From Acidobacteriota bacterium (lineage in GTDB: Bacteria; Acidobacteriota; Thermoanaerobaculia; Multivoradales; UBA5704), in contig JBDTZG010000017.1 in NCBI GenBank assembly GCA_040005235.1, forward strand, positions 1-64,000: a stretch of 64,000 nucleotides of DNA, given 5' to 3'. The position numbers and the translations under genes are program-made. This document shows, piece by piece, positions 41,653 to 59,374 of this stretch. The notes beneath the pieces are model-generated. The model was not told the origin of the DNA and did no database searches. It was given only the letters and a program-made list of their open reading frames with translations. The stretch's first letter is position 1; each line of letters opens with the position of its first letter.

Positions 41653-41670
41653 GGAACTAAACCGTCAAAG

Positions 41671-41697: not shown

Positions 41698-41719
41698 GTT
41701 GAGCAACCAAAGTTCGCAA

Positions 41720-42388
41720 ATGGATCGGGACGCCAATCTAGAAGCCGATGGCAGGCCGGAGTGGGAACTTGCCCTCCTCGGTGACGAGGGTGCGCTCGCC
41801 CGTCTGGTCCGTCGCCTCACGCCGGTGGTCCAGGCTCGCGTGGCCCGGAAGCTGTTGCTGTCCCGTGATCGCTCGGGTGGATCGCGCGACGTGCGCCAGG
41901 AGGTGGACGACCTCACCCAAGAGATCTTCCTGATCCTGTTCGCCGACGACGGCAAGGTGCTGCGCGGTTGGGACCCCGGGCGCGGCTTGTCTCTTGCGAA
42001 CTTCGTCGGTTTGGTCGCAGAGCGGCAGACGGTGTCGATCTTGAGGAGCGGCAGGCGCTCGCCCTGGCGCGACGATCCGACGTTGTCGGACGAGCTGGAA
42101 CGGATCGCCTCGCCGGTCGAGACCGAGACCGCCGCCGCCTCGCGCGAGGTACTCGGCCGGCTGTTCGACCGTTTGACCGAAGAGCTTTCTCCCCTCGGCC
42201 GCCGCCTGTTCGACCTCCTGCTGGTGCAAGAGACCCCCGTCGCGGAGGCGGTTCTCGCGACCGGACTTTCAGCCGACGCGGTCTACGCTTGGCGAAGCCG
42301 GCTGCGGCGTCTGGCGCGAAACCTATTGGCAGAATTGTCAGAACCGCCCCGGGAAGCGCGAACACCTGCTCGGGAGAGGACCCGATGA
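41720..42388 (+). CDS. ECF-type RNA polymerase sigma factor
   Basis: ALLGDEGALARLV, VDDLTQEIFLIL (region 2), LSPLGRRLF and region 4 HTH LATGLSADAVYAWRSRLR. Alternative start 41693. Confidence 0.85.
   Translation: MDRDANLEADGRPEWELALLGDEGALARLVRRLTPVVQARVARKLLLSRDRSGGSRDVRQEVDDLTQEIFLILFADDGKVLRGWDPGRGLSLANFVGLVAERQTVSILRSGRRSPWRDDPTLSDELERIASPVETETAAASREVLGRLFDRLTEELSPLGRRLFDLLLVQETPVAEAVLATGLSADAVYAWRSRLRRLARNLLAELSEPPREARTPARERTR
42336..42367 (+). promoter_or_regulatory. Putative ECF promoter, copy 1 (inside the sigma gene 3' end, upstream of anti-sigma/CHAT)
   Basis: T-GTCAGAACCG-ccccgggaagcg-CGAACACCT; same boxes and spacing as the copies at 46057 and 59345. Confidence 0.6.
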
Positions 42389-43296
42389 CAAGACCGATCG
42401 AGCCCGGAGCCGGAGCATCCGCTGGAGCCCCTATGCCCGGGGAGGACGACTCGCTCCTGCGCGAGCTGGGCGCTTGGGCACGCGACCGCGCCGCCGTGGA
42501 GCGCGAGCAGCTGGACGACCGCTGGGATCGCCTCGCGGCCGGCGCGCTCACCCCCGAGGAGGAGGCGGAGCTGCGCGCGGAGGCCGAGGGTTCGGCCGAA
42601 GGGGCCGCAGCGCTCGCTGCGTTTCAGCCCTTGGGACCGGAGACTGAGGCGCGGATCGTCGCCCAGATCCGGGCGCAACGGGCGGCGGAGCGGCCCGCCA
42701 AGCCGGCGATCGCCGCCGCTCGGCCGGTCGTCGCCGCGCCGTCCCCCAACGACCGGCCGAACAACGTCCTCCCCTTCCGTCGCCGCGCCGCCGTCTGGGG
42801 CGCCAGCCTGGGGCTCGCCGCGGCGGCGGTCCTGGTCGCGGTGCTGAGCCTTCCGGGACGCTCGGCGCCGCTTCCCGCGTATGTGGCGGAGCTCAAGGTC
42901 GGCGATCAAAACGACCGTAGCGGGACATCCGGCACCCAGCCGACCGGCGTCCCGACGTTTTCTCCCGGCGCGCGTTTCGAGCTGGTCCTGCGCCCGGCCG
43001 AGACCGTGAAGGGCGACGTGGCGGTGACCTGTCTATTGGTCGCGACCGGCGGCGGCCCGCCCCGGCCGTTCCCCGCTTGCGACGACGCCGAGCACTCGAA
43101 CGACGGCAGCCTGCGCGTCACCGGGACGGTCGGAAGCCAGATCGAAGGCCCGCCCGGCGATTGGACGCTTTGGGCGATCCTCGGTCGGCCGGGAGATCTG
43201 CCGAAAGATCCGCCGGTCACGAGCGTCGCGGAGCCGATCGCCGAAAAAGGCTGGATCGGGATCCCGCGACGAATCCGCTTCGCGGCGGCGGCGTGA
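42385..43296 (+). CDS. Putative single-pass membrane anti-sigma factor
   Basis: ATGA overlap with the sigma stop and GGAGAGG RBS; helical N-domain (WDRLAAGALTPEEEAEL), VLPFRRR then a TM helix (AVWGASLGLAAAAVLVAVL), then a beta-rich external domain. Confidence 0.7.
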   Translation: MTRPIEPGAGASAGAPMPGEDDSLLRELGAWARDRAAVEREQLDDRWDRLAAGALTPEEEAELRAEAEGSAEGAAALAAFQPLGPETEARIVAQIRAQRAAERPAKPAIAAARPVVAAPSPNDRPNNVLPFRRRAAVWGASLGLAAAAVLVAVLSLPGRSAPLPAYVAELKVGDQNDRSGTSGTQPTGVPTFSPGARFELVLRPAETVKGDVAVTCLLVATGGGPPRPFPACDDAEHSNDGSLRVTGTVGSQIEGPPGDWTLWAILGRPGDLPKDPPVTSVAEPIAEKGWIGIPRRIRFAAAA

Positions 43297-46037
43297 TCCG
43301 CCGGCCGATTCTCCTGGCCGCGGCGATCGCCGCGCTCGGCTGCTCCCGGCCGCCGTCGCCTTTGGCGGTCGAATACGCCGGTTGCTCCGAGGTCCTGCGC
43401 CAAGGGCCGACCTGCCTGCTCGAAGCGGGCAAAAAGGGGGCCTCCCCGCTCCTCACGATCTGGGTGCCGCTCGCGGCAGCGAATACCCCCACCGAAATCC
43501 GGATCGACGACCGGCCCGTTGCGGCGGAGGCTATGCCGGCTCGCGAGGGACACCGCTATTCGATCGAGGTCCCGCTCTCCTCACATCACCTAGAGGTCCG
43601 GCAGAAAAACCCCAAGGATACGAGCACCTGGTCGCTCGCACTCGCGCCGTTTCCGACGGAGCCGGCATGGTTCACCAACGCCCTTGAGCTCGCGCGCTCC
43701 GGAGAGCCGCAACCGACCGACCAAGCCCGGAAGATTCTTACCCGCCACCTCCCTACCATCTCCAACGCTGCGCTTCGCGCCCGCCTCTTTTGGATCCTCG
43801 CCCGCACTGCCCCCGTGCGCAACGCAGCGGACTTCAGGCGCGAGCTGGTGGCTCGCCAAAAAGCCGGCCATCTCCTCGGTGAGGCAACGGCCACCACAGG
43901 GTTGGCCCACCAACTCGCCGAGGACGAGCAGCTCGCCGAGGCATCCAAAGTCCTCGACGATTTGGTCCTTTCCCCCGCGCCTCCCGCCGAAGCGGCCTAC
44001 TTTGTCGCCTATGAACGCGGCCTGGTGGCGCGCCTTTCGGGTGAACCGCGGCAAGCCCTGCGGATGTTCGAAGCCGCGGCGACCGAGGCCGATCGGCTGG
44101 GTCTCGCCGCCAATCACGCCTACGTGGAGCAGCAGATGGCGTCCCTCTTTCTCGATCTCGGACGGTTCAAGGAGGCGGATGCCCGTTTCGCGGCGAACGC
44201 CGGGGCGCCCGGGGCCCCGAAGCTCGATCAGGAATGCGCCGCAGCGCAGCTGGACGCCAACCTCGGCTGGACCCGTCTGCTCGCCCGCGAGGCGGGCCTT
44301 GACGTGGGCGATCCGCTGCCTGCGCTCAAGGCAGCGCGCGATGCTTTCGACCGACTCACAGGATGCGGCGCGTCGCACCAGCGGGGCAACGCGCAGCTCA
44401 ATTTCGCGCTCGCCGATCTCCAAGCCGGCAGGCTCGACGACGCGGAGGCGGCACTCAAAAAAGCCCGCGCCCTCGCGACCACCCTGATCGCCGAGGAGCG
44501 GCTTTGGCAGAGCGAGATCGAAGCGCGGCTGGCGCTCGCCCGCAAGCGGCCGCGCGAGGCGCTCAAAATCTGGCAACTCTTGGAGGCCAACGCACGGAGC
44601 TCCAACTCGCTTGAAGATCTCTGGCTCGCGCTCACCGGCCGCGCTCGGACGGAGCGCGCTCTCGACGAACCCGACTCGGCCCTGCGCACGCTCGGCGAGG
44701 CGGAGGATCTCCTGGACCGCCAGGCGGCGACCGCTCAACGGTCCAGCCGAGCGCGTTTCGTGGCGCAGCGCGAGGCGAGCGCCCGGTTGCGCATCGAGCT
44801 GCTGCTTGAGAAGGGGCGACTGGCCGAGGCGCTTTCCGCCGCCCGCCGTTCCCGCGCCCGGGTACTGCGCCAGATCGAAACCGAAGGCCGGATCGAACGG
44901 CTCGCCGGACCGGAGCGCGAGCGATGGCAAGAGGCGGTTGGAGGCTTTCGCGCCGCGCGCCGGGACTGCGACGAGAAAGCCGCCAACGATTGGGCGGCAC
45001 CGGAGGACCGCCTGAAGATGATCCGCTCGGAGCGCGAGTCGCACTGCACGCAGGCCGAAGAGGATCTCGAAGCGGCGGTCGCCCATCTGGGCTTGAGCGC
45101 CACGACCGGCGCCTCCGAGAGCTTCCGGCCGCCCATCTCGGGCGAGTTGCTGCTCGCGTTCCATCCGTTGGATGACGGCTGGGTGGCGTTCGCGGAGGAA
45201 GGGACTGAAATATCCTTCCATCGCTTCGAGCTACCCTCCAGCGCGCTCGGCAATCCCAAAGATCTCGCCGCGCGGCTCTTCACGCCGTTCGCCGACGAGA
45301 TCCGGCGCGCCCGGCGGATTCGCCTGCTCCCCTACGGCTCTTTGCGCGAGGTGGATCTGCACGCCCTGCCGTTCGACGGCGCGCCGCTGCTCACGGGCCG
45401 GCCGGTGGTCTACGGTCTCGATCTGGTGAATCGGCCAGCCGTCGAAGCGTCCACGGAGACGAAACCCACCGCCCTGGTGATCGGCGACCCGCGTGGCGAT
45501 CTCCCTTTGTCCCGCAAAGAAGTGGCAGGAGTGGGAAGCGCACTGGCGGACGGCGGCTGGCAGGTCGACACGGAAAGCGGTGACGACGCCACGGTCAACC
45601 GGCTTCTCGAAGCGCTGCCGCGGATCTCGCTGCTCCATTTCGCCGGCCACGGGGTCGCGGGGAGCGCGGACGGCGGCGGCGAGCTGTTGTTGGGCGGCGA
45701 GGAGCGCCTGCTCGCGACCGAGATTCTGAACCTCAGCCGGGTGCCCGCACAGATCGTTCTTTCCGGCTGCGAAACCGGCCGCGCCGATCCAGGCGCCGCG
45801 GTCGAGGGGCTGGGCCTCGCCCAGGCGTTTCTGCTCCGCGGCGCCTCCCAGGTGGTCGCCGCGATCCGCACCGTCCCCGACGAAGACGCCGCCGCGCTGT
45901 TCGAGGCGTTCTACCGGCCGCCGCCGCGCGGCGCCTCCGATCTCGATCTCGCGAAGCGCCTCGTCCGGGCGCAGGCCGACGCGCTGCGTAAGAACCCGAA
46001 GAGCGCCGCGGTGAGCTTCCGCGTCTTCGAGCCCTGA
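43293..46037 (+). CDS. Lipoprotein TPR-CHAT domain protein (caspase-like cysteine protease)
   Basis: GTG overlapping the upstream stop; IRRPILLAAAIAALG-C lipobox-like signal; TPR-like helical repeats; LHALPF, VIGDP, LHFAGHG (His), VLSGCETG (Cys), GLAQAFLLRGA. Confidence 0.88.
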   Translation: MIRRPILLAAAIAALGCSRPPSPLAVEYAGCSEVLRQGPTCLLEAGKKGASPLLTIWVPLAAANTPTEIRIDDRPVAAEAMPAREGHRYSIEVPLSSHHLEVRQKNPKDTSTWSLALAPFPTEPAWFTNALELARSGEPQPTDQARKILTRHLPTISNAALRARLFWILARTAPVRNAADFRRELVARQKAGHLLGEATATTGLAHQLAEDEQLAEASKVLDDLVLSPAPPAEAAYFVAYERGLVARLSGEPRQALRMFEAAATEADRLGLAANHAYVEQQMASLFLDLGRFKEADARFAANAGAPGAPKLDQECAAAQLDANLGWTRLLAREAGLDVGDPLPALKAARDAFDRLTGCGASHQRGNAQLNFALADLQAGRLDDAEAALKKARALATTLIAEERLWQSEIEARLALARKRPREALKIWQLLEANARSSNSLEDLWLALTGRARTERALDEPDSALRTLGEAEDLLDRQAATAQRSSRARFVAQREASARLRIELLLEKGRLAEALSAARRSRARVLRQIETEGRIERLAGPERERWQEAVGGFRAARRDCDEKAANDWAAPEDRLKMIRSERESHCTQAEEDLEAAVAHLGLSATTGASESFRPPISGELLLAFHPLDDGWVAFAEEGTEISFHRFELPSSALGNPKDLAARLFTPFADEIRRARRIRLLPYGSLREVDLHALPFDGAPLLTGRPVVYGLDLVNRPAVEASTETKPTALVIGDPRGDLPLSRKEVAGVGSALADGGWQVDTESGDDATVNRLLEALPRISLLHFAGHGVAGSADGGGELLLGGEERLLATEILNLSRVPAQIVLSGCETGRADPGAAVEGLGLAQAFLLRGASQVVAAIRTVPDEDAAALFEAFYRPPPRGASDLDLAKRLVRAQADALRKNPKSAAVSFRVFEP

Positions 46038-46055
46038 ACGGCTTTTTTCTACCCC

Positions 46056-46087
46056 GGTCAGAAACGAGCCCGGCCCGGCGAAGACCT
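46056..46087 (+). promoter_or_regulatory. Putative ECF promoter, copy 2 (upstream of subtilase 1)
   Basis: G-GTCAGAAACG-agcccggcccgg-CGAAGACCT, intergenic; CGAA starts 65 nt before the ATG at 46144. Confidence 0.65.
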
Positions 46088-46143
46088 CTGCCGTGCGCCC
46101 CTCCTTAAACCCAAGCGCCTTTCTTGTTTCGGGGAGCCAGATC

Positions 46144-48150
46144 ATGTTCGGTCGGTTTCAACAGCCATTCGCGTTTCGATGCCTCGCCGCCGGCCTTGTC
46201 CTCATCCTCGCCTCGGCCTTGGCATCGGGGGAGTTGCAGGCCGCCAAGATCTCCTTCCGCCCCTCCAACTACGGCCTCCCCCCGGGAGGTTGCTCCGACC
46301 GGTACTGGGTGGCGCTCGCCGACGGAGCGGGTCTGCCGGCTTCGGTCTGCCCGACCGTCGAAGGTTGGAGAAAGGAATTTCTGTTCAACGCAAACCTCAG
46401 AAATCTCAACGGACCGCGCTTTTGCCGCTATTTCTGGAATCCACCGATCTCCAAGACCGAAAGAGGCGAACCGGGTATGCCGCCTCTCCTCTTGGCCGAC
46501 ATCGCGAGGTTGCAGGCCACGGAGCATCTCCACGGCACGGTCCGCCGCTGCGGCGTCCTCGGAGCTTCCGGCACGACGCTCGCCGAGCGCAATCAGGAAG
46601 TGATGTTTCGCGAGTTTCGGTTCCAGACGGGAGATACGGACCTGCCCTTTCTGACCGCGTCGTCCGATGTCCGGTTGGCCGTCCTCGACACCTATCCGAC
46701 CGGGGATTTCCCGGCTAAGGAAAAGGACCCGGTCGTCTGCAAGACCGGCCACGGCTTCGCGATCGCCCACCTCATCGAGGAGTTGATCTGCGACGGCAGC
46801 GGGGGCGAATTCAAGGAATGCGCCGCGGCGATGACCGGCCGTCTCGCCCTACCGCTCGGCGGGCCGGGGTCCGGATCGCTCGATCAGCCCGATCCTCCGA
46901 TCGGGTCGGGTTGCGGCGGATACGGCAGCCCGCTCGATCTCGCGCTCGCAATCCGGGACGAGGTCGCGGCATGGAAGAAGTCCGGCATCCGGCATCTGGT
47001 GCTCAATCTTTCGGTCGGTTGGGATTCAAACCTGCTGCACAAAGGCCTCGGTGCGGAAGCCGCCGATGGTCTGAACGCCGAGGAGCTGAGCGTCTACGCG
47101 GCGCTCCGAAACGCCGCGGCCCAAGGCGCTCTTTCCATCGCCGCCACCGGGAACGGCCAGGGGGTGGCGCTGTCGGAAACCGGCCCGCTGCTCCCCGCCG
47201 GCTGGTACGCCAAACCGCCGACCATCGCGCTGCTGGCGCCGGTTCCCTTGACGACGATCGACCCGGTGGTCTGGCCGATCGGGGCGACCGATCGCAACGG
47301 CCAACCGCTGGGCAATGCGCGACCGGGCGCCGAGCCGCCGCTGGTGGCTTACGGCGATCACGCGACGGTCAAACTACTCGGCGACGGCTGGACCGACCCG
47401 CTCACCGGCAGCTCGGTGGGAGCCGCGGTCGCTTCGTCGCTCGCCGCCCTCGCTTGGCGCTTTCAGCCGGCGCTCGAACGCCAGGAAGTCATGGAGATGC
47501 TGGCGGCCTCCGCCACCCCCCTGGTGCGAGACGCCGCCTATCACCGCAACCCGAGCCAGAGTCCGCCCAGGGTTCGGAGGCTGTCGGTCAACGCCCTCTT
47601 GAGCCGCGCCTGGAGCCCACCGAAAGTGCTCGCCACTCCTCCCACCTCAGGCCAGACGACGGTCGACTGCGCGGGCGGAAGCTGGATCCCCACGACCGCC
47701 GGGCCTAAGCTCTATAGCTGCCCGGGAACCGCCGTTCCTGCCCAAGCCTCGGCCATGCCACTGCTGACGCCGCTCGGCGCGGTGCCCTGGGTACAAACCC
47801 AACCGGGAGCCAACGCCTGCCCCAGCTGCTCGCTCGGAGGCGGCGGCGGCGGGATGCTGCGCGGAATCCAGACGCCGAAACAGATCGACCTGCGACTCGA
47901 AATCCCACCGGACTGGAACCCCCAGCTCCAGCTCACCGATCTCTGGATCGAGGCTTCGGATGCTCAAGGAGCCAAGACAACCGTCTGGATCGGCAAGCCG
48001 GCTAAGCTGCTCGCCCCGAACGACTCGATCCAAGTCCAGAGCCTCCCCTTCCCGCGCGACCTCCGAGCGGCCGTCCTGTCCGCCCGGGTCAAAGTCGGGC
48101 CAAAGGATTACTCGCTGCGCATGCCGATCTACGTCGACCCGGGGGAATAG
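46144..48150 (+). CDS. Secreted S8 (subtilisin-like) serine protease, paralog 1
   Basis: Signal peptide; VRLAVLDT (Asp), GHGFAIAH (His), VLNLSVGW, AATGN (oxyanion Asn), LTGSSVGAAVAS (Ser). Confidence 0.8.
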   Translation: MFGRFQQPFAFRCLAAGLVLILASALASGELQAAKISFRPSNYGLPPGGCSDRYWVALADGAGLPASVCPTVEGWRKEFLFNANLRNLNGPRFCRYFWNPPISKTERGEPGMPPLLLADIARLQATEHLHGTVRRCGVLGASGTTLAERNQEVMFREFRFQTGDTDLPFLTASSDVRLAVLDTYPTGDFPAKEKDPVVCKTGHGFAIAHLIEELICDGSGGEFKECAAAMTGRLALPLGGPGSGSLDQPDPPIGSGCGGYGSPLDLALAIRDEVAAWKKSGIRHLVLNLSVGWDSNLLHKGLGAEAADGLNAEELSVYAALRNAAAQGALSIAATGNGQGVALSETGPLLPAGWYAKPPTIALLAPVPLTTIDPVVWPIGATDRNGQPLGNARPGAEPPLVAYGDHATVKLLGDGWTDPLTGSSVGAAVASSLAALAWRFQPALERQEVMEMLAASATPLVRDAAYHRNPSQSPPRVRRLSVNALLSRAWSPPKVLATPPTSGQTTVDCAGGSWIPTTAGPKLYSCPGTAVPAQASAMPLLTPLGAVPWVQTQPGANACPSCSLGGGGGGMLRGIQTPKQIDLRLEIPPDWNPQLQLTDLWIEASDAQGAKTTVWIGKPAKLLAPNDSIQVQSLPFPRDLRAAVLSARVKVGPKDYSLRMPIYVDPGE

Positions 48151-48268
48151 AGGGCGCGGATGATCCCGTGGGGGCCGTCGACGACCTGGATGCCTCAGAC
48201 AGGGCTCAGAACCGAGGCGGCCCAAAACATGCCCGTTTCGGGTATAGTTTCCGGAGACGACTTCGACG

Positions 48269-48643
48269 ATGAGCATCTTAAAGCGCAAGGACTTCGCCCG
48301 GTGGCAGGCAGGCGAGAAGCTTCCGGATACCTCCTTATGCAAGGCCGTCGAGGAGATGGAAAGCGGCCTGATCGACGCTGACCTGGGCGGCTACCTCTAC
48401 AAGAAGCGCGTGGCTCGCCCCGGCGCAGGTAAGAGCGGTGGTTATCGGACGGTGCTCTCAGCCCGGATCGGTAACCGCTACGTGTTCCTCCACGGCTTTG
48501 CGAAGAGCGACAAGGCCAACATCACGCCCGACGAGAAGAAGGCCCTGAAGTTCGCCGGCAAGGTGTTTCTGGATCTCCCGCCTACAGACCTGGCGAAGGC
48601 AGTAAAGGCGGGCGTATTAATGGAGGTGCATTGTGTCCAGTAA
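48269..48643 (+). CDS. Type II TA toxin, RelE/ParE superfamily (HigB-like, toxin-first)
   Basis: GLIDADLGGYLYKKRVARPGAGKSGGYRT, HGFAKSDKANIT. Confidence 0.88.
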   Translation: MSILKRKDFARWQAGEKLPDTSLCKAVEEMESGLIDADLGGYLYKKRVARPGAGKSGGYRTVLSARIGNRYVFLHGFAKSDKANITPDEKKALKFAGKVFLDLPPTDLAKAVKAGVLMEVHCVQ

Positions 48644-48938
48644 GCTGATTGAATCTTTGCGCGGCGACCTCGCCGAGCTGCAGAAGGCGGGCGTCATCAG
48701 TAAGGTGACGATGCGGCAGTTCGACTCGATCTGCCCGCCACCAGTACGAGAGTTCAGCGCAGACGACATCAAACGACTGCGCGAGAGACTGCAATTCAGC
48801 CAACCGGTGTTCGCACACCTTTTGCACACGACGGCATCGACGGTGCGCAAGTGGGAACAGGGCGACACGAGGCCCGCCGGGCCAGCCCTGAAGCTGCTGA
48901 ACGTCATCGCTGACAAGGGCCTGGAAGCCGTCTTGTAA
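48633..48938 (+). CDS. XRE-family HTH antitoxin (HigA-like)
   Basis: IKRLRERLQFSQPVFAHLL, TVRKWEQGDTRPAGPALKLL; overlaps the toxin gene. Confidence 0.88.
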   Translation: MSSKLIESLRGDLAELQKAGVISKVTMRQFDSICPPPVREFSADDIKRLRERLQFSQPVFAHLLHTTASTVRKWEQGDTRPAGPALKLLNVIADKGLEAVL

Positions 48939-49040
48939 ACCGCAGCCGAGCCGCGGAACTACCTGCTGATAGACAGAGAGTGGCTCTGGGGCGCGGAACT
49001 CGCCCATCCGACGAAGGTGGCCGCAAGCGGGCGCATTGAG

Positions 49041-49435
49041 CGGCTAGCGAGCGCGGGATTCGGCTAGACAATGCGAACAGCGGCTAGCGAGCGCGGGATT
49101 CGGCTATCCAAGCGCGGATTCCAGCTAGCCAGCTCCGGCTGCGGCTATCCGGCTCCTATGACGGCTATCCAAGCGCGGACTTTGGCTCCCAAACACGGAT
49201 GGCGGCTATCCACTTCTGCAGCCGGCTATCCAGCTCCGATCGCAGCGATCCAGCGCCCGATAGCGGCTGGCCACCTCGAATCGTAGCGATCCAGCGGCCG
49301 AGAGCGGGTATCCGTCGCGAATCGTAGCGATCCAGCGTCCGATAGCGGCTATCCACCTCCGATGGCGGCTCGTCGGCGAGTGAGATCGGCCCGCCGACGC
49401 CGATAGCGGTATCCGGTGGATAGAGCGGCTCGCCA
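49041..49435. repeat. Degenerate tandem array of about 20 units, 20-21 bp period, core CGGCTATCC
   Basis: Core variants start at 49041, 49061, 49081, 49101, 49122, 49142, 49162, 49183, 49203, 49223, 49243, 49264, 49284, 49305, 49325, 49346, 49366, 49387, 49407, 49426. Confidence 0.85.
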
Positions 49436-49550
49436 GCCGAGGAGGAACGCGAGCGAAGCCGTAATCACGCGATCCGCGGCGGCCGGCGAAGTGCACGCTC
49501 GCTCGGACCTTTCGCCGCTTGGGCGAGCCGCTTGCGATCGCGATTGACGC

Positions 49551-50252: not shown

Positions 50253-52253
50253 GCCGCGGCCCCTTCCCTACCGGGAGGTATGCCCGTCGCGATCGGCAGG
50301 GTAAATGAAAAGCGCGCCCCCCGTTCCCGCGAGATCGCCGCGACCTTGCCGCCGTGGCGTTCGACGATCGAGCGGACGATCCACAGGCCGAGCCCCATGC
50401 CGGTCTCCTCCGGTTCTCCCTGCGTTTCGGGCTCCGCTCCTGCCGTCGTCTGGCCGGGAAAGCGCCCGGGGATGCGAACGAAGCGGGCGAACAGATCGTC
50501 CGGCGATCCGGGCGGCAGGCCGGAGCCTTCGTCCTCTACCCAGAGGCGAAGCCGCTCTGGCTCGGTCTCCCCGCCGATCGTGATCGTCGAGCCCTCGGGG
50601 GCGAATTTCTGGGCGTTGGCGAGCAGGTTCACCATCACTTGGGTCAGGCGCTCGGCGTCGCCCTCGATCCGTGGCAGCGGAAAGGGCAGCTCGATCGACA
50701 GCCGCTGGCGCCGCCGTTCGAACAGAGGCGCGGTCAGCTCCGCGGCCTGCTCGACCACCTCGTCGAGGGCGACGGGGCTCCGGCGGATGCCGTCCTCCCC
50801 CGCCTCGATGCGGACGCTTTCGAGCAGGTTGTCGATCAGCCGGGTGAGCCGCAGCGCCCCCCGTTCGAGCGACGCGGCGAGCTGCCGCGCCGGCTGGTCG
50901 CCAGCTCGTCCAGGCGCTCGCCGAGCAGCTCCAGCGAGGCGAGCTGCGCCGCGAGCGGCGTTTTGAATTCGTGGGAGACGTTGGCGAGCACAGCGTCGCG
51001 CAGCCGGCGCGAGGTCTCGTCCCCGGTTTCGTCGCGGATCACCTGAAACTGTTGCTCCTCGGCCAGCTCCGAGCTGGTGATGACAATCACCCGCTTGCCC
51101 CCGTTCCGGCGCAGCGACTCGGTCGCCCGCGCGCCGCCGCGGAACCGGGCGTGGATGATCGGGCAGTGCTCTTCGCACGGCCGGACGCCGTTTTCCCCGA
51201 TCGGCAGGAGCACGTCGCCGCAGAAGCGGCCGATCGCCGCTTGAGGATCAACTCCGAGCAGCGCGGCGGCCTGCGGGTTCAGGTAGCGGATGCGCCGGTC
51301 GCGATCGACCGCGAACACCCCGTCGGCGATGCCGGTCAACACCGCTTCCGCCTCCGCCTGGCGGCGGCGCAGCTCGGCGGTGAGGTGGGAGAGCCGGCGA
51401 CGCATTTCTTCCATGGTCGCGGCGAGCGTGCCGACCTCGGCGGTCTCCCCCCGCGCGGCCTCGGGAATCGGACTGGAAAAGTCGCCCCGGCCGATCCGCG
51501 TCGCGGCCCGATCAAGCGCCTGGATCGGGCGGGCGATCCTGCGGCCCAGAAGGAGGCCGGAGAGCATCGCAAGCGCCGCGACGCCGAGCGCGAGCAGCAG
51601 GAAGCGCCTTTCGAGCTGATGCAGCGAGAGGGCGACCTCGCCGCGCGGCAGTGCGGTCTCAATCGTCGCGGCATGGCCGGCGGCGGCGAAGATCTGGCGC
51701 GAAACATAGCGCTCGCCGTCACGCACGGTGCCGTTGGCATCCGCCGGCCTCGCGGAGCGAAGTACAACCGGCAGACCCACCTGCGCGGCGATCCGGTCGG
51801 AAAACTTCGAGTCCAGGGCGAGAGCGGTGGCGACCGTAGCACCCGGCACGGCGACGATCGGCGCCGAACCGATCAACCGCAAGACCGCGGAGAGAGCACC
51901 GGCCCGGCCGAGGCGAACGGCTTTCCCCCGGCGATAACCGCGCAGGCGGTGAGGCCGCTCGTCGAGCGAAAGCGCTCCAGAAATACCGCGAGACCGGCGG
52001 CGTCCCCCTCGCGCAGCAGGCGCGCGGCGGTCGGCCGTTCGGCGAGCAGGCGGGCGGAGGTGCGGATGTCCTCGGCCGAGCGTTCGACCGCCTGGCGCGC
52101 GCTGATCCCCGCGAGCGCCACCCGGGCGAGCGCCTGTTCGTCCGCCAGCCGGTCGAGCAGGCGGACGGCGGCGAGCGCGATCGCCAGGACCGCGAGCAGG
52201 ACGAGGATGGCGTTTCCGCCGACGAGGAGAGTGCTGAGGCGAATCCGGCGCAT
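50249..52253 (-). pseudogene. HAMP-PAS sensor histidine kinase split by two frameshifts (pseudogene or sequencing error)
   Basis: Three consecutive frames: TM/sensor N-terminus (52253 to ~51890), TM-HAMP-PAS-H box VSHEFKTPL (~51890 to ~50900), HATPase NLLANAQKF, DEGSG, GMGLGL (~50900 to 50249). Confidence 0.8.
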
Positions 52254-52312
52254 GGGGTTTTGAGTTTCGGGCGCGGCTAAAGTCTATCGCGCCAAGGTCG
52301 GGCTTCTTTGCC

Positions 52313-52391
52313 CCTCAGCGTTTGGCCTCAGCGTTTTGGCCTCAGCGTTTGGCCTCAGCGTTTGGCCTCAGCGTTTGGCCTCAGCGTTTGG
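52313..52391. repeat. 13-bp tandem repeat, 6 copies (CCTCAGCGTTTGG)
   Basis: Five perfect copies and one with an extra T; the last copy contains the cysW stop codon. Confidence 0.95.
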
Positions 52392-53229
52392 CCGCGCGCA
52401 GGCCGGCGCGCCACTCGATCAGGCTTTTGATCACTAGGGTGATCAGGGCGAGCAGGGTAAGCAGCGAGGCGACCGCGAACGCGGCCGAGAAGGCGTATTC
52501 GTTGTAGAGGATCTCGACGTGAAGCGGCAGCGTGTTGGTGAGCCCCCGGATGTGGCCGGAGACTACCGAGACCGCGCCGAACTCCCCCATCGCCCGGGCG
52601 TTGCAGAGGATCACGCCGTAGAGCAGCCCCCAGCGGATCTTCGGCAGGCTAATGCGGGTAAAGGTCTGCCAGCCCGAAGCGCCGAGCGTGAGCGCGGCTT
52701 CTTCTTCGGCGCTCCCCTGCGATTGGAGCAGCGGCAGCAGCTCGCGCGCGATCATCGGCGCGGTGACGAAGATCGTCGCGAGCACGATGCCGGGAAGGGC
52801 GAAGATGATCTTCCAGTCGTGGTCGAACAGCCAGGGACCGAGCCAGCCGTGCAGGCCGAACAGCAGCACGAACATCATTCCCGCGATCACCGGCGAGACC
52901 GAAAACGGCACGTCGATCAGCGTGATCAGCAGGTTCTTTCCCGAGAAGCGAAACTTGGCGATCGCCCACGCCGCAGCGAGCCCGAACAGGAGGTTGATCG
53001 GCACCGCGAACGCCGCCGCGGAAAGCGTGAGGCGCACCGCAGAGAGCGCCTCCGGCGTCTGCACCGCGGCCCAGTAGACGGCGGTCCCCTCTTCGAACGC
53101 TTTGACGAATACGAGCGCGAGCGGCACGAGCAGGAACAGGCCGAGGAAGAGCAGCGCCGCGCCGATCAACAGGCGGCGGACCCACGGGCGCTCGGTGGTC
53201 GCGGGATGAGACGGTCGTTCTGAGGACAT
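52381..53229 (-). CDS. cysW: Sulfate ABC transporter permease CysW
   Basis: LIDVPFSVSPVIAG, EEEAALTLGASGWQTF, ARAMGEFGAVSVVSG, TLPLHVEILYNEY. Confidence 0.95.
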   Translation of the reverse strand: MSSERPSHPATTERPWVRRLLIGAALLFLGLFLLVPLALVFVKAFEEGTAVYWAAVQTPEALSAVRLTLSAAAFAVPINLLFGLAAAWAIAKFRFSGKNLLITLIDVPFSVSPVIAGMMFVLLFGLHGWLGPWLFDHDWKIIFALPGIVLATIFVTAPMIARELLPLLQSQGSAEEEAALTLGASGWQTFTRISLPKIRWGLLYGVILCNARAMGEFGAVSVVSGHIRGLTNTLPLHVEILYNEYAFSAAFAVASLLTLLALITLVIKSLIEWRAGLRAAKR

Positions 53230-53246
53230 AAGAAGAGTCCGCCCCG

Positions 53247-54143
53247 CTAGACCGCCGGCTCGGCCGGCAGCGCCCGGTTGTACCGAAGGGTGAGGAAGTT
53301 GATCGTGAGCAGCAATGCGAACGAGACCGACAGGAACACCGAGGCGATCGCGGTCGCCCCCGCGTAGTCGTACTGCTCCAGCTTGATCATGATCAGGAGC
53401 GGCGTGATCTCCGAGCGCATCGGCAGATTGCCGGCGATGAAGATCACCGAGCCGTATTCGCCGAGAGCGCGGGCGAACGCGAGAACGAAACCGGTCGCAG
53501 CGGCGGGCGCGATCTCCGGCAGCAGGACGCGGCGGAACAGCTGGCCGCGGGTTGCGCCGAGGGAGACCGCCGCCTCTTCGATCTCCGGATCGAGCCCGGC
53601 GAGCACCGGCTGCACCGTGCGGACGACGAACGGCAAGCCGATGAAAGTGAGCGCCACCAGAATGCCGAGAGGGGTATAGGCGATCTTGATCCCAAGCGGC
53701 GCCAGATATTGGCCGATCCAGCCGTTGCCCGAGTAGATCGAGGCGAGCGCGATGCCGGCGACTGCGGTGGGCAAAGCAAACGGCAGATCGACCATCGCAT
53801 CGACCAGCCGCCGCCCGGGAAATTCGTAGCGTTCGAGCACCCAGGCCACCAGCACGCCGAACACGACGTTGACGATCGCCGCGGCGAACGCGGTCACCAG
53901 GCTCAGCCGGTAGGCCGCGATCGTCCGGGGGTCGCTGATGATTTTCCAGAAGGCATCCCAAGTCAGCGAGGCGGTTTTCAAGAAGACGGCCGAGAGGGGG
54001 ATCAGGACGATCAGCGACAGATAGAGCAGCGTGAAGCCCATCGACAGTCCGAAGCCCGGCAGATTGCCGCGCTTGGGTCCGCGTCGCTTCGGTGCCGCCG
54101 CTAATGGAGCCAGGGCGCCCGTCCCGCTCTCAGGCATATACAT
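53247..54143 (-). CDS. cysT: Sulfate ABC transporter permease CysT
   Basis: LPGFGLSMGFTLLYLSLIVLIP, DLPFALPTAVAGI, ARALGEYGSVIFIAGN, KLEQYDY. Confidence 0.95.
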   Translation of the reverse strand: MYMPESGTGALAPLAAAPKRRGPKRGNLPGFGLSMGFTLLYLSLIVLIPLSAVFLKTASLTWDAFWKIISDPRTIAAYRLSLVTAFAAAIVNVVFGVLVAWVLERYEFPGRRLVDAMVDLPFALPTAVAGIALASIYSGNGWIGQYLAPLGIKIAYTPLGILVALTFIGLPFVVRTVQPVLAGLDPEIEEAAVSLGATRGQLFRRVLLPEIAPAAATGFVLAFARALGEYGSVIFIAGNLPMRSEITPLLIMIKLEQYDYAGATAIASVFLSVSFALLLTINFLTLRYNRALPAEPAV

Positions 54144-54146
54144 CGG

Positions 54147-55136
54147 CTACCGGCCCGCCTGATAGATCTGGTCGAACACCCCGCCGTCGGCGAAATGGGT
54201 TTTCTGCGCCTTGGCCCAGCCGCCGAACACCTCGTCGATCGTGAACAGATTCATCTTGGGAAACTGCGCGGCGTACTTAGCGGCGGCACCGGGGCCGCGC
54301 GGCCGGTAGTAATTGCGCGCAGCGATCTCCTGGCCCTCCGGGCTGTAGAGATATTCGAGATAGGCCTTCGCGAGCGCCTCGGTCTTGTGCTTCTTCGCCA
54401 CCTTGGCGACAACCGCGACCGGCGGCTCGGCGAGGATGCTCTTGGAGGGTGCCACGATCTCGAATTTGCCCTTGCCGAGCTTCTCGACCGAATAGATCGC
54501 CTCGTTTTCCCAGGCGATCAGCACGTCGCCGATGCCGCGCTCGACGAACGTCACGGTCGAGCCGCGGGCTCCGGTGTCGAGAATCGGCACGTTCTTGTAG
54601 ATCCGCGTCACCAGGTCCTTCGCCTTCGCCTCGTTGTTGCCATACTTGCCTAGGGCATAGCCCCAGGCGGCGAGGTAGTTCCAGCGCGCTCCGCCAGAGG
54701 TCTTGGGATTCGGCGTGATCACCGAGATGCCCGGCCGAGCGAGATCCTCCCAGTCGTGGATCTTTTTGGGGTTCCCCTTCCTCACCAGGAAGACGATGGT
54801 CGAGGTGTAGGGGGTGCTGTTATTCGGCAGCAGCTTCTGCCAGTTCGGGGGCAGCAGGCCGGAGGCCGCGATCGCGTCGATGTCGTAGGCGAGCGCCAGG
54901 GTGACGACGTCGGCTTCCAGCCCGTCGGAGACGGCGCGGGCCTGCTTGCCCGAGCCGCCGTGCGACTGCTGCACGGCAAGATCCTGGCCGGTCTTCGCCT
55001 TCCATTGCTTGGCGAACGCGGCGTTGAAATCCTGGTACAGCTCGCGGGTCGGGTCGTAAGAGACGTTTAAGAGGTTCACCGCCGCCGCGGGGAGCGCGGC
55101 GAGCAAAATCGTGAGAGCGAGCAGGGTTCTTCTCAT
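54147..55136 (-). CDS. sbp: Sulfate-binding periplasmic protein
   Basis: [42 protein letters not shown]. Confidence 0.95.
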
Positions 55137-55147
55137 GACGAAGGCTC

Positions 55148-56593
55148 CTAGAAGTTGATCTGGAAGCGGCTGAAGACGACCCTTTCATCGGGCCGGTCAC
55201 CGATTCCGGAAGGCGCCGAGACCGCCCCGCCTTCGAAGCGGGTTTGGGCGAGGTCGAACATCCAGCGCACGGAGCGGTTGAGGTACCAATTGAGCCCGAG
55301 GCTCCACGCCTTGGCGGAAGAAGCCGAGGAGGTCGGACTCGCGAACAGGGGAAACGCGTCGTCATCGACGTCGAGCTCGGAAAAGCGGCCGACCAGCTCG
55401 AACGCGCCCCAGGTCTTGGCCTTGGGGTCAAAGTTCTTCTTGGGTGCCACTCCGCGATAGCTCGGCGAGCCGCCAGCGATCACCCACGACCCCGCCACCT
55501 GCCAGGCCTTGTTTTCGAGATCCGTCGCGACCGCGCCGCGCCGCACCTCTTGCGAAGACGTCGTGTATTCCGACAGCAGGCCGAACCGGCTGCCGTACCA
55601 AGTGAGCTGCGGCAAGAGGCGCTTGCGGTCGCCGTTGGCCATCACGGTTCCGGCCGCGGTACCGTCGGAACGGTAGGAGAAAAAGGTTTGCTGGGCGTCC
55701 GTGCGGTAAGAGGGCAATCCCGTCGCGGTGAGGGTCCCGTTCTGCGTGCCTTGAGATGCCGCGACGCCGAAACCGAGACCGCGAAGGCCCAAGTTGTCCG
55801 ACTTGGCGAACGGGGTGAAGAACAGTCGGGCCGCCACGTCCTTGCCGCTGTTGCTGTCAAGGTCGCCGCCGTTGGCGCCATCGACGACGCCGTTCCACAC
55901 CCCGACCGCGTAAGTGGCCCGCCCCGCCGCGAGATCGCCCGAGACCTGAACCACGAGATCGCGGTTCGGCACCAGGTTGGTCGGCAGCGCGCGCTCGACG
56001 AAAAAGATGTCGGTCGCTCCTTGAAGCCGCTCGATCCCCACCGGCGGCTTGAACTTGCCCGCGCGAACCTTGAACGCGGGCGCGAAGCGGCCCTCGATAT
56101 AGGCATCGAACAGTACGCTGGTCCCCTGGCCGAAGTCGGGCATGATCCGGAAGTCGAACCGATCGAACACGGTCCCTTCAAAGATCGGCCGCGCCCGGCG
56201 GAGCAGGAAGGTATCGACGTTTGGGCGCGAGCGGTCGTCACTGAAAAAGCGGCCGTCGAACTGGACGTAGCCGCGCAGCTTGAGCACGTAGGCGCCGTCG
56301 GCGGATTTGAACGAGAATCCATCCTTGCCGCTGGTCACCGAAGTTGCGGTCTTCGCCTTCTCCGAGTCGCCTTCGTCTTTGATTTCCGTCTTCCGGTCGA
56401 GCACGCGGAGCTTCTGGTCGATCTCGTCGAGCCGCTCATCGACCGATTTGGGGGCTTCGTCGGCCGGCTCTGTCTCGGCCGGCGGCTCGGCGGGTGGAGT
56501 CGGCTCCTGTGCGCGCCCCGGTCCGCCGAAAGCTACGGCGGCGAGGGTCAAGGCAGACATGAAAAGAGGGAGCGAGGCGCTTCTAACCTTCAT
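55148..56593 (-). CDS. OprO/OprP-family anion-selective porin
   Basis: Signal peptide, coiled-coil N-terminus, [31 protein letters not shown], terminal RFQINF. Confidence 0.82.
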
Positions 56594-56629
56594 CTGAAAT
56601 CTCCTGGGCTTTTTGCGGTCAAACGGGGG

Positions 56630-58552
56630 TCAAGGCATTCCCGCGCCGGAGCGGATGATCAACAGCGGCCGGCTCGCGTTTTCGATCAGTTCCGCGACGA
56701 GCCCTTCGAGCTTGATCGCGCGCCGCGCTCGGGCGAGCGGCGCACCCAGCACGATGACCGTCTGTTCGGAAGGAGAGGCCGCGGCGAGGATCTCGGTCTG
56801 CGCGTCGCCGCGGCGGATCAAGACGTCGGCCGCAACGCCAATGCGCCCGAGCGAGCGGACGCTCGCCGCGAGAAAGCGCTGGGCAAGCGCCGCCTCGGCC
56901 GCCATCGCCTCGGCCGGCAGAACGGTCAGTACGGTGGCCGTGGCGCCGAGATGGCGCGCGAGCCGTCCGGCGAACAGAACGTCCTCCTTGCCCGGCTCCC
57001 CCACGGCGACGCAAATCAAGAAATGGGTCGGCAGCTCAGGAGAAGCGGATTCCGGCACCGCCAGCAGATGGTGGCCGCCCGCGGCGAGCGCCCGCTCCGC
57101 CTGCTCGACGGCACCGCGGGCCGGCAAACCCAAGACGACCAGATCGACCGGCCGGCGCTCCACTTGATCGGCAACCGCCGTGGCCAGAAGCAAAGGCGAC
57201 GCGAATGCCTCGACCGAGGCGAGGCCGCTGCCCAGCCTCTCCTTCTCTTCTTGCAGACGCTCCTCGAAACCGCCGGCCGCGCGCTTGGCCCCTCGGCCCG
57301 AGTCGGATTCGGCGGCGCTCGCGAGCACGGTGACCCTGGCGTGCGCCATCCGGGCGATCCGGCCGCCGAGATCGGTCGCCGTGCGGGCCGCGGGCGAGCC
57401 GTCGGTCGCGAGCAACAGAGAGAGCCCCGGGTGGACGAGCGCGTGGATGCGCCGCACGCCCACCCAGGCCGGATCGCCCGGACGGAGCGGATAGCGGTAT
57501 GCCTGATGCTGGGAGCGGACCGCGTCGATCAGCACGTGCTCGCTGCCGAACGGCACGTCGGGCGCGATCGGCCGGACCCCGGCGAGGGGAGGAAGGCGAA
57601 GGCGCAGGCGTTCGGCGGCGCCGACCAGGGAGGTCTGCTCGACGATGGCCTTCCCGAGCAGCGGATAGCCGAGCGCCTCTTCGGACTCTTTGACCGCCAC
57701 GTCCTCGGGCCGAAACAACACCTGGACACGCCGCGGTTCGAATCCGCCATCTCCCCCCGCCGCCCGTCCGCCCTCGGTCGCGAGCGGAAACTCGACCGGC
57801 CCCAGGCGCACCCCGGCGCGCGTAGATTCGCCGACCATCAGGTTCGCGCTGCCCAAAAACGTCGCCACGAACTCGGTCTGCGGCCGCAGGTACAGCTCCT
57901 GCGGCGGCCCGGCTTCGAGCAGGCGGCCGAAGTTGAGCACCGCGAGCCGGTCGGCCAGCTCGAACGCCTCCTCCTGATCGTGGGTGACGAAGATCGTCGC
58001 GATTTGGAGCTCCCGCTGGATGCCGCGGATAGTCCGCCGCAGCTCCGTGCGGATACGTGCATCGAGCGCCCCGAACGGCTCGTCGAGCAGCAAAACCTCG
58101 GGCTCGTGCGCCAGCGCCCGGGCGAGCGCCACCCGCTGCTGCTGGCCGCCCGAAAGCTGCCGCGGCATCCGGCCGCCGAGCCCCGCCAATCCCACCAGCT
58201 CGAGCAGCTCGTCGCGCCGCCGCCGCCGATCCGCACGGCCGACCCTGCGGATCGAGAGTGCGAACTCGATATTTTCGGCCACCGACATGCCGCGAAACAG
58301 GGCGTAACTCTGGAAGACGAAACCCACGCCGCGCTTGCTCGCCGGCAGGTGCGTGACGTCGCGGCCATGGAGCAGAATGCGCCCGGCGTCCGCTTCGGCC
58401 AGGCCGGCGATCATCCGCAGCACCGTGCTCTTGCCGCTGCCGCTCGGGCCGAGCAAAACGAACAGCTCGCCGTCCGCTATTTCGAGCGACAGGTCGTGGA
58501 CCACCGAATGGCCCTGGTAGCGCTTGGTGAGCTGTTCGAGCACGATCGACAT
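56630..58552 (-). CDS. cysA: Sulfate ABC ATPase (CysA-like) fused to two C-terminal universal stress protein (USP)-like domains
   Basis: GPSGSGKST, LSGGQQQRVALARAL, LLLDEPFGALD, FVTHDQEEA; then LLLATDGSPAA..VDLVVLG and FLICVAVGEPG..RPLLII. Confidence 0.8.
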   Translation of the reverse strand: MSIVLEQLTKRYQGHSVVHDLSLEIADGELFVLLGPSGSGKSTVLRMIAGLAEADAGRILLHGRDVTHLPASKRGVGFVFQSYALFRGMSVAENIEFALSIRRVGRADRRRRRDELLELVGLAGLGGRMPRQLSGGQQQRVALARALAHEPEVLLLDEPFGALDARIRTELRRTIRGIQRELQIATIFVTHDQEEAFELADRLAVLNFGRLLEAGPPQELYLRPQTEFVATFLGSANLMVGESTRAGVRLGPVEFPLATEGGRAAGGDGGFEPRRVQVLFRPEDVAVKESEEALGYPLLGKAIVEQTSLVGAAERLRLRLPPLAGVRPIAPDVPFGSEHVLIDAVRSQHQAYRYPLRPGDPAWVGVRRIHALVHPGLSLLLATDGSPAARTATDLGGRIARMAHARVTVLASAAESDSGRGAKRAAGGFEERLQEEKERLGSGLASVEAFASPLLLATAVADQVERRPVDLVVLGLPARGAVEQAERALAAGGHHLLAVPESASPELPTHFLICVAVGEPGKEDVLFAGRLARHLGATATVLTVLPAEAMAAEAALAQRFLAASVRSLGRIGVAADVLIRRGDAQTEILAAASPSEQTVIVLGAPLARARRAIKLEGLVAELIENASRPLLIIRSGAGMP

Positions 58553-58644
58553 GACGAGGCGCATCGTAGGGATCGGCGGATACGATGTCGGTCGTTGGGC
58601 GGTGACATTTCGGACCGATTTCGTCACCACCCGGGAGGACCTCC

Positions 58645-59325
58645 ATGAACCGCTTCGCCCTGCTTCTCGTTTCGATCGCCTTTGGAATTTCACCTCTGGC
58701 GGCAGAGGACAAAACCCTTCCCCCCGGCTTCGTCGATCTCAGCCAGGCCGTTCCAGGAATCGTGCTCGACATCCGCTACACGGGCCCGCACAACTTCGTC
58801 GGCGTTCCCATCGACGGCTACGTCCGGCCGCGCGCCCTGCTCACCCACCTCGCGGCGGCGGCTCTGGCGAAGGCGCAGGAGGACCTCGCGCCGTTCGGCT
58901 TCGGCCTCAAGGTGTTCGACGCATACCGGCCGCAGCGCGCGGTCGATCACTTCGTCCGCTGGTCTCACGACGCCGCCGCCTTAACGGGCAAGGCGGAGTT
59001 CTATCCGCAGGTGGACAAGTCCAAGCTGTTCGAGCTCGGTTACATCGCCGAGAAATCGGGTCATTCGCGCGGCAGCACCGTCGATCTCACAATCGTCGTC
59101 CTGGCGGATGGCTCGGAGCTGGCAATGGGCAGCCCCTACGACCTGTTCGATCCGATCTCCTGGCCTGACAGCGCGAAAGTCTCACCCGAGGAGCGCGCGC
59201 ACCGGCTGCTGCTCCGCGAGGTGATGCTCCGCGCGGGTTTCAAGCCCTACGCCCAGGAGTGGTGGCATTTCACGCTGGAGGGCGAGCCCTTCCCGGAGAC
59301 CTACTTCGACTTCCCGGTGGAGTGA
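58645..59325 (+). CDS. D-Ala-D-Ala dipeptidase (VanX/DdpX, M15D), with signal peptide
   Basis: DIRY, FDAYRPQRA, SGHSRGSTVDLT (SxHxxGxAxD-like), EWWHF. Confidence 0.93.
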   Translation: MNRFALLLVSIAFGISPLAAEDKTLPPGFVDLSQAVPGIVLDIRYTGPHNFVGVPIDGYVRPRALLTHLAAAALAKAQEDLAPFGFGLKVFDAYRPQRAVDHFVRWSHDAAALTGKAEFYPQVDKSKLFELGYIAEKSGHSRGSTVDLTIVVLADGSELAMGSPYDLFDPISWPDSAKVSPEERAHRLLLREVMLRAGFKPYAQEWWHFTLEGEPFPETYFDFPVE

Positions 59326-59343
59326 GCCCAGGCATATCTCCCT

Positions 59344-59374
59344 TGTCAGAAACGCGCTCTCCGCAACGAAACCC
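59344..59374 (+). promoter_or_regulatory. Putative ECF promoter, copy 3 (upstream of subtilase 2)
   Basis: T-GTCAGAAACG-cgctctccgcaa-CGAAACCC, intergenic; CGAA starts 66 nt before the ATG at 59433. Confidence 0.65.

Follow-up and report, generated by a model that had tools for sequence, protein, structure and literature searches.

A short bipartite sequence, GTCAGAA-N15-CGAA, recurs in and downstream of a divergent gene for an extracytoplasmic function (ECF)-type sigma factor in the DNA of an Acidobacteriota bacterium. It is very probably the cognate -35/-10 promoter of this sigma factor, which is encoded at positions 41720-42388, and the placement of its copies points to negative feedback without autoinduction. 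The stretch that was analyzed, called the window below, is 64,000 nucleotides (nt) long and corresponds to C5:1-64000 of the assembly. One copy of the motif lies inside the 3' end of the sigma gene itself, ahead of the gene of a putative anti-sigma factor, and the other two precede genes of secreted proteases. In terms of element type this would be an ordinary ECF promoter; the conserved layout in which it is found, shared by many related soil bacteria, is unusual. The features concerned are the following.

41720-42388, forward strand: divergent ECF-type sigma gene, assigned from TIGR02937, from the match of the ortholog profile to ShbA and from the alignment
42337-42362, forward strand: putative promoter of the anti-sigma gene, -35 box GTCAGAA at 42337-42343 and -10 box CGAA at 42359-42362, within the tail codons of the sigma gene (L-S-E ... 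R)
42385-43296, forward strand: predicted single-pass membrane anti-sigma factor of 303 amino acids, assigned from a predicted complex and a hydrophobic stretch; no Pfam family
43293-46037, forward strand: TPR-CHAT protein (Pfam CHAT, E 2.2e-28; GTG start)
46057-46082, forward strand: putative promoter of subtilase 1, -35 box at 46057-46063 and -10 box at 46079-46082; top position weight matrix match of the genome
46144-48150, forward strand: S8 subtilase-like secreted protease 1 of 668 amino acids (Pfam Peptidase_S8, E 2.3e-6)
59345-59370, forward strand: putative promoter of subtilase 2, -35 box at 59345-59351 and -10 box at 59367-59370; fourth matrix match of the genome
59433-61466, forward strand: S8 subtilase-like secreted protease 2 of 677 amino acids (Pfam Peptidase_S8, E 3.3e-10)

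The initial annotation of this DNA had reported three copies of the motif, at 42337, 46057 and 59345, and a pattern scan of the window found an exact match to GTCAGAAMCG-N12-CGAA at each of these positions, all three on the forward strand, with no match in 100 dinucleotide-preserving shuffles of the window. The boxes and their spacing agree, as had been stated, while the three N12 spacers (CCCCGGGAAGCG, AGCCCGGCCCGG and CGCTCTCCGCAA) are all different. No other exact match exists anywhere in the genome (140 contigs, 6,224,448 bases, 66% G+C), and the three fall in one 17 kb stretch adjoining the sigma gene. Ten more sites are found in the genome at one mismatch; those inspected, including one at window position 11429, look like the interior of coding regions, and these sites were set aside as chance occurrences in coding-like sequence rather than regulon members. 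A position weight matrix built from 31 sites, taken from other genera only, was scanned over the whole 6.2 Mb genome and ranked the site at 46057 first (24.3 bits), the one at 42337 second and the one at 59345 fourth (20.0 bits); the matrix thresholds of 12 and 15 bits are arbitrary. Two of the additional matrix matches (C35:127974 and C24:77551) were rejected as promoters, both being located inside same-strand open reading frames (ORFs) with high G+C content at the third codon position, and further ones are present at C43:9520 and C68:17065. The three sites therefore appear, as far as sequence comparison goes, to be the whole high-confidence regulon of the sigma factor in this genome. To that extent the proposal that they define its regulon holds; it does not extend to the relatives, where two to five sites per locus are found and other targets occur as well.

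The relatives that carry the sigma gene are, by record title, Thermoanaerobaculia/Holophagales metagenome-assembled genomes (MAGs) of the Acidobacteriota, and the more distant ones are Myxococcota. Across genera, the core of the motif is (T)GTCAGAA-N15-(G)CGAA, with the consensus ctGTCAGAAa-N13-gCGAAg. Only the two boxes are conserved; the spacers and flanks are free to vary, and the spacers show no pairing pattern. The gap between GTCAGAA and CGAA is 15 nt in nearly all sites, which is the same as GTCAGA-N16-CGAA. Thus, the GTCAGAA part of the GTCAGAAmCG box that had been described originally is the cross-genus core, and the "mCG" part is a property of this genus only. In 21 contexts (20 relatives and the window), sites with at most one mismatch number 50 on the strand of the sigma gene vs 6 on the opposite strand. 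A larger set of 80 sigma loci from named MAG records (1,267,545 bases), searched with the core pattern at up to one mismatch, yielded 163 sites, 100 of them exact, on the sigma strand vs 6 sites, none exact, on the opposite one; the reversed pattern gave 11 sites on both strands, again with no exact match. The concern, raised by the initial annotation, that the motif might be no more frequent than expected by chance is answered by these strand counts together with the shuffles and the three exact matches in 6.2 Mb, which put it far above chance.

The sites occupy stereotyped positions relative to the sigma match. The first, at about +566, falls in the 3' end of the sigma gene, the second, at about +3900 to +4350, comes directly behind the CHAT gene, and one to three additional sites per locus are found farther downstream. 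Among the Acidobacteriota loci, the site at the sigma 3' end is present in 52 of 60 and the post-CHAT site in 44 of 53. The possibility that the motif would be absent from orthologous loci, which had been named as a refuting outcome, is thereby answered: other genera, and in part another phylum, have it at matching positions, with the boxes kept and the spacers free. Downstream of the sites, 155 ORFs were called, of which 54 encode the anti-sigma factor and 47 are S8-like, the latter being the largest family other than the anti-sigma one; the sigma gene itself accounts for four, three of these in Myxococcota, and the remainder encode assorted proteins, mostly of 500-780 amino acids. Of 20 downstream ORFs of relatives that were checked, Pfam confirmed S8 in 7. 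Start codons in the relatives were called automatically (longest ORF with high third-position G+C) and are rough, so that distances to the S8 genes are approximate. In the Myxococcota relatives (L103, L105, L110, L116, L129, L132, L136 and L137) the -10 box is often CGTA and not CGAA, and in some of them the motif lies upstream of the sigma gene.

As judged from sequence, the sigma protein and the motif are linked most strongly, though indirectly, by their co-variation in a paralogous module of the same genome. This second module, at C104:5492-14810 (approximately 990-10310 of locus L139), encodes a sigma factor 53% identical to the one in the window, a second anti-sigma factor, a second CHAT protein (CHAT, E 2.9e-29) and a third S8 protein (E 2.5e-10), and it also holds small ORFs and a gene of a 688-amino acid protein with a HELGH (HExxH-like) motif. 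The motif in this module is a variant, TGTC(A/G)AA-N16-GCAAA, located at the 3' end of the paralogous sigma gene (found by eye), at 9546 past the CHAT gene, and at 11822 and 12627 ahead of two further units. Loci L082, L099, L114 and L122 have this variant at the corresponding positions. Since the paralogous module carries its own variant at matching positions, the motif changes together with the sigma factor. One position cleanly separates the two sigma clades: D186 in 15 clade-1 proteins vs alanine in 5 clade-2 proteins, in the sigma4 helix ...SADAVYAWRSRL....

An exact copy of the clade-1 motif, GTCAGAATTCTTCGTCGGCGCGCGAA, was also seen in a genome of the same genus at G003:C13:113818-113843 on the reverse strand, about 200 nt upstream of the paralogous sigma gene of that genome and pointing away from it. 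This copy may serve cross-regulation of a divergent gene; a motif of this type was not found at the equivalent place in the genome of the window.

The copy inside the sigma gene deserves separate consideration. It falls within the final 52 nt of this ORF, and 22 nt separate its CGAA from the ATG of the anti-sigma gene at 42385. Precisely this distance is seen in 31 of 54 sites, and it would leave room for a transcription start site (TSS) and the Shine-Dalgarno-like sequence GGGAGAGG. It could be argued that only the subtilase sites are promoters and that the copy at 42337 is kept just for the C-terminal ...ELSE... peptide of the sigma factor. The box always has the same codon phase (xxG TCA GAA), with the G of GTCAGAA at codon position 3 and the box encoding x-S-E/G/K, and therefore a protein-level constraint is conceivable; moreover, the preceding LLxEL is a conserved protein sequence. 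The residues past S-E are, however, not conserved in the sigma alignment. All 17 coding cases use TCA for the Ser in the -35 box, a codon that makes up only 2.2% of Ser codons in the genome (CGA, the Arg codon in the -10 box, makes up 6.4% of Arg codons), while the sigma factors of clade 2 and of L056, which have a different box, keep the Ser as TCG. In L052 and L053 the sigma stop codon lies inside the spacer, and in L055 it lies 6 nt past the motif, yet all three retain CGAA at a distance of 22 nt from the anti-sigma ATG. Because the rare TCA codon is invariant, the residues after S-E vary, and CGAA persists beyond the stop codon, the in-gene copy is constrained at the level of DNA and not of protein, and we regard the peptide explanation as very unlikely.

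Somewhat less unlikely, though still improbable, is that the motif is a real cis element read by another alternative sigma factor or by a DNA-binding regulator encoded elsewhere. Co-location by itself cannot tell the sigma factor of the window from such a factor, the link between protein and DNA in our analysis is not a direct one, and the sigma factor scores weakly with curated models of its kind: it stays under the cut-offs of TIGR02937 (E 6.5e-8, 32.4 bits vs a cut-off of 42.9) and of both Pfam sigma domains, Sigma70_r2 and r4_2 (E 0.03 and 0.02; 14.5 and 15 bits vs cut-offs of 24 and 25.7). The sigma gene is present in 22 of 41 close relatives (E 1e-10 or better), and exact 11-base matches to the motif, by hand sums, number 124 in these 22 genomes vs 37 in the 19 genomes without it. 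The latter matches could be taken as motifs that exist independently of the sigma factor, but they are near the background given by the reversed 11-base pattern (35 matches in the 41 genomes). It also speaks for the sigma factor as the reader that the motif travels with its gene across genera and into Myxococcota, that within one genome it co-varies with the sigma paralog, and that it is asymmetric and bipartite, with a fixed 16-nt spacing, a sense-strand orientation and a CG(A/T)A box, which is the grammar of ECF promoters and not that of a palindromic operator. The least likely alternative, to which we give hardly any weight, is that the motif acts as RNA (a leader, a processing site or an attenuator) or is a relic of a duplication or a mobile-element boundary. 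Given upstream read-through, the motif would indeed lie in transcribed leaders, and the copy ahead of subtilase 1 follows a weak hairpin and T-run; on the other side, no Rfam family reaches its gathering score in 41000-62000 and the spacers vary without a pairing pattern. That the boxes are identical cannot be put down to duplication because the flanks are unrelated and the two subtilases are only 39% identical (E 5e-99), and the first site belongs to a different gene altogether, so that the statement of the initial annotation that the in-sigma copy is not accounted for by the subtilase duplication stands.

Several points weigh against reading the motif as the promoter of this sigma factor and should be set beside the above. 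Among the Acidobacteriota loci, the in-sigma site is missing from 8 of 60 and the post-CHAT site from 9 of 53, some of these loci belonging to the variant clade. In an even class-wide sample, where 7 of 201 genomes have the sigma gene (E 1e-40 or better), the excess is small: a 12-base pattern was found, by hand counts, 15 times in the 7 sigma-bearing genomes vs 123 times in the 194 others (the sample includes two unpublished genomes, G166 and G044, both in the sigma-less group and contributing one background match each), and in one genome, G027, none of three matches is at the sigma locus. The relatives are not independent, with 6 of the 21 contexts and 5 of the 80 loci coming from one genus, and some loci of the separate relative collections are from the same genomes. 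The Myxococcota sites were accepted with up to two mismatches and without a chance control. On balance, conservation, the matrix ranks and the DNA-level constraint favor, on comparative grounds, the proposal made originally that the motif is the cognate -35/-10 pair of the sigma factor.

The same proposal held that the internal promoter drives the anti-sigma gene and not the sigma gene, and this part is borne out by the sequences upstream of the latter. In the window, the best matrix score in 41300-41760 is -8.0, and in none of 57 Acidobacteriota loci do the 400 nt ahead of the sigma gene contain a motif of at least 15 bits, whereas the sigma 3' end reaches 15 bits in 48 of 60 such loci, against an opposite-strand background of 3 in 1.27 Mb. 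With no sigma-dependent promoter for the sigma gene, the circuit would thus be one of negative feedback without positive autoinduction. In four Myxococcota loci (L116, L129, L132 and L135) a copy of the motif does lie upstream of the sigma gene, as in an autoregulated layout (sites with up to two mismatches, without a chance control), and because of this it is possible that the in-gene position is older than the loss of autoregulation. What stands upstream of the sigma gene in many loci is a TATAAT-like hexamer, found within 170 nt before the sigma match in 43 of 79 loci vs a background of 0.023 per 170 nt; it is mostly CTATAAT or CTATACT and, in loci L064-L119, lies 40-85 nt before the sigma match. 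The corresponding element of the window is weak:

41689-41697, forward strand: possible extended -10 element TGATATGTT for the sigma operon, conserved in the orthologs of the genus

These hexamers suggest that the sigma gene is expressed from a housekeeping-type promoter. This suggestion is weaker for the window itself, and two observations count against it: a sigma-70 scan of 41300-48400 found no full promoter, and the genus of the window has only TGATATGTT upstream of the sigma gene. A candidate promoter of the GGAAC/AAC-N17-CGTC type upstream of the sigma gene was rejected, being unsupported by conservation. The sigma ORF opens at an ATG at 41693; the ATG at 41720 fits the MD... start of the orthologs, and the position of the upstream box likewise suggests 41720 rather than 41693 as the start. 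The sigma protein is 222-231 amino acids long and ends about 20 residues past sigma4 in the alignment. The profile of its orthologs matches the ECF sigma factor ShbA (PDB 9ISN_F; E 1.2e-5) over positions 7-195, covering both domains; the NCBIfam model of ShbA gives 23 bits with this protein vs a cut-off of 209, which corresponds to remote similarity.

The genes that follow are closely packed. The sigma and anti-sigma genes share an ATGA at 42385-42388 and the anti-sigma and CHAT genes a GTGA at 43293-43296, and these stop/start overlaps suggest translational coupling of the three. All sufficiently long contexts among the 20 fetched have the genes in the order sigma, anti-sigma, CHAT, and in every one of these the anti-sigma factor and the TPR-CHAT protein are split into two ORFs. 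The anti-sigma protein has a conserved N-terminal part that contains neither Cys nor His and, by eye, a hydrophobic stretch near residues 136-158. The predicted complex of the sigma factor with anti-sigma residues 1-130 scored 0.82 vs 0.00 for the best of three controls; the predicted contacts involve sigma residues 21-77 and 141-203, that is, both sigma domains, and the runs share at least 76% of contacts, with a predicted local distance difference test score (pLDDT) of the partner of at least 71. Of 80 solved complexes, 58 pass the mark applied to this score, as do 2 of 110 mismatched pairs, counts that hold only roughly here since our own alignments were used for the prediction, and the passing score may reflect likeness to solved sigma/anti-sigma pairs. 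By this prediction only, the anti-sigma factor would bind sigma2 and sigma4 of the sigma factor. The N-terminus of the TPR-CHAT protein (MIRRPILLAAAIAALGC...) has, by eye, the look of an export or lipoprotein signal and contains a lipobox-like ALGC, and a PDB sequence search with this protein gave no match at E 0.01 or better.

Upstream of the two subtilase genes, the sites are placed in a similar way. The site of subtilase 1 starts 20 nt past the stop codon of the CHAT gene (46035-46037) and that of subtilase 2 starts 20 nt past the stop codon of a gene of an M15 dipeptidase. The distances to the ATG, given originally as 65-66 nt, were measured as 65 and 66 nt, respectively, from the C of CGAA. 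Beyond the motif, the upstream regions of the two genes align nowhere, and the two subtilases, to judge from the sequences, are old paralogs and not products of a recent duplication. The site of subtilase 2, with the spacer ...CTCTCCGCAA, is also present in four genomes of the same genus (G002, G003, G006 and G007), and the order M15 gene, motif, subtilase 2 is also found in G004 (L042). One more feature was noted between the CHAT and subtilase 1 genes, and it is only suggestive, with 5 terminator-like sites found in the region vs 5.2 expected from shuffles:

46029-46052, forward strand: weak terminator-like hairpin and T-run between the CHAT stop codon and the putative promoter of subtilase 1

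From these elements we infer how the circuit may work, including the reading of the motif by the sigma factor, the start sites, the role of the CHAT protein and the dynamics. The anti-sigma factor encoded next door would hold the sigma factor at the membrane, and the exported TPR-CHAT protein may take part in sensing or in cleavage of the anti-sigma factor, by analogy with DdvA, in which the two parts are fused. Once freed, the sigma factor would guide RNA polymerase to the three promoters of this genome, of which the in-gene one would re-express the anti-sigma factor and the CHAT protein, while the other two would drive the genes of the paralogous secreted S8 proteases; the sigma gene, having no such promoter, would apparently be housekeeping-driven. 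If the C of CGAA is taken as position -12, as in ShbA, transcription is predicted to start near 42370, 46090 and 59378.

An internal sigma-dependent promoter of an anti-sigma gene has a precedent in rseA P3 of Escherichia coli, a sigma-E-dependent promoter located inside the sigma gene that produces a transcript of the anti-sigma gene and its partners without the sigma gene (PMC8595263, in its description of Rhodius et al. 2006). Here, too, the putative promoter lies inside the sigma coding region upstream of the anti-sigma gene. According to the same description, rseA P3 precedes rseA by more than 230 nt and gives a 228-nt leader, whereas in the window the promoter would occupy the last codons and the leader would be about 14 nt; in addition, E. 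coli has a sigma-E-dependent promoter upstream of rpoE as well, while none of the 57 Acidobacteriota loci has an equivalent. The sigma-E family and its motif are unrelated to those described here.

In its geometry, the motif resembles known ECF promoters, being bipartite, with a fixed spacer of about 16 nt, a CG-containing -10 box and a sense orientation beside the sigma gene. The comparison with ECF41 made in the initial annotation is accurate, since its promoters are printed as TGTCACA-n16-CGTC in PMC3426412; the resemblance, which is one of geometry only, consists of the 16-nt spacer, a near-identical -35 box (TGTCACA vs TGTCAGA) and a CG-type -10 box. ECF41 sigma factors, as described in that paper, have a long C-terminal regulatory extension, are without an anti-sigma factor and regulate a COE neighbor, unlike the sigma factor studied here, which has no extension, has an anti-sigma factor, is encoded next to CHAT and S8 genes and has proteases as predicted targets. 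ShbA, the closest solved sigma factor by profile, is described in PMC12019637 as reading CGTAAC-N16-CGATGA and preferring G-13 C-12 G-11 N N G/A-8 A-7, and this -10 preference fits gCGAAg(a); the -35 box is different and, in that description, ShbA has no anti-sigma factor and transcribes hrdB and itself.

In its protein components, the system is closest to DdvS of Myxococcus xanthus, an ECF sigma factor under the control of a membrane anti-sigma factor tied to a periplasmic TPR-CHAT part, with several DdvS-dependent promoters in the locus (PMC11506125, PMC6061681). As portrayed in these sources, DdvA combines the anti-sigma and TPR-CHAT parts in one protein and has an N-terminus that binds zinc (CHCC), while here two ORFs overlap by GTGA and the anti-sigma N-terminus lacks Cys and His; DdvS activates its own gene as well as a CBASS/CRISPR island, while the predicted targets here are S8 proteases and the sigma gene does not appear to be autoregulated. 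A PDB profile search with the sigma factor returned no DdvS chain at E 0.001 or better. ECF54 is another group with carboxypeptidase, subtilase and CHAT-domain neighbors, described as actinobacterial and without an anti-sigma factor (PMC8999054, PMC7826278); compared by description only, it shares the subtilase and CHAT neighbors with the present system and differs by the anti-sigma factor. The main text of PMC7826278 makes no mention of CHAT or S8, and the group descriptions in its supplements may already cover the family and the motif. Literature searches, which did not include the motif string itself, gave no paper on this sigma family or on a GTCAGAA-type ECF motif.

It is tempting to generalize, tentatively and at somewhat worse than even odds in our estimate, that this ECF family of Thermoanaerobaculia, with its Myxococcota relatives, is a pure negative-feedback device in which a constitutive TATAAT-type promoter drives the sigma gene, the tail codons of this gene are kept as the promoter of the anti-sigma and TPR-CHAT genes, and secreted proteases are the output. 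Paralogous modules would be insulated from each other by changes in the -35 box (GTCAGAA to GTCGAA/GTCAAA), in the -10 box (CGAA to CAAA) and from D to A in sigma4. If this is true, the two modules are a natural pair of orthogonal sigma/promoter sets, and the paralog-specific motifs could serve as orthogonal parts. An uncharacterized ECF family from an uncultured lineage gains a testable promoter, a prediction of start sites and a small predicted regulon composed of the anti-sigma factor, the CHAT protein and S8 proteases, joined in relatives by other large secreted proteins, and the split anti-sigma/TPR-CHAT pair becomes linked to DdvA-type signaling. The standard prediction of ECF promoters looks upstream of the sigma gene (as outlined in PMC7826278), and such upstream-only prediction would miss a family whose motif is in the sigma 3' end. 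Feedback without autoinduction, if it operates as proposed, adds to the known designs of ECF circuits.

Three neighboring genes can be mentioned in addition. An ORF with a sulfatase domain and C-terminal TPR matches (61945-63999) is located downstream of subtilase 2 and runs off the end of the window, with no copy of the motif ahead of it. The M15 gene that ends 20 nt before the putative promoter of subtilase 2 occupies 58645-59325 and encodes a D-Ala-D-Ala dipeptidase (E 1.7e-36). Directly after subtilase 1 and on the same strand, a gene of a RelE-family toxin is present at 48269-48643 (PF06296, E 1.6e-43).

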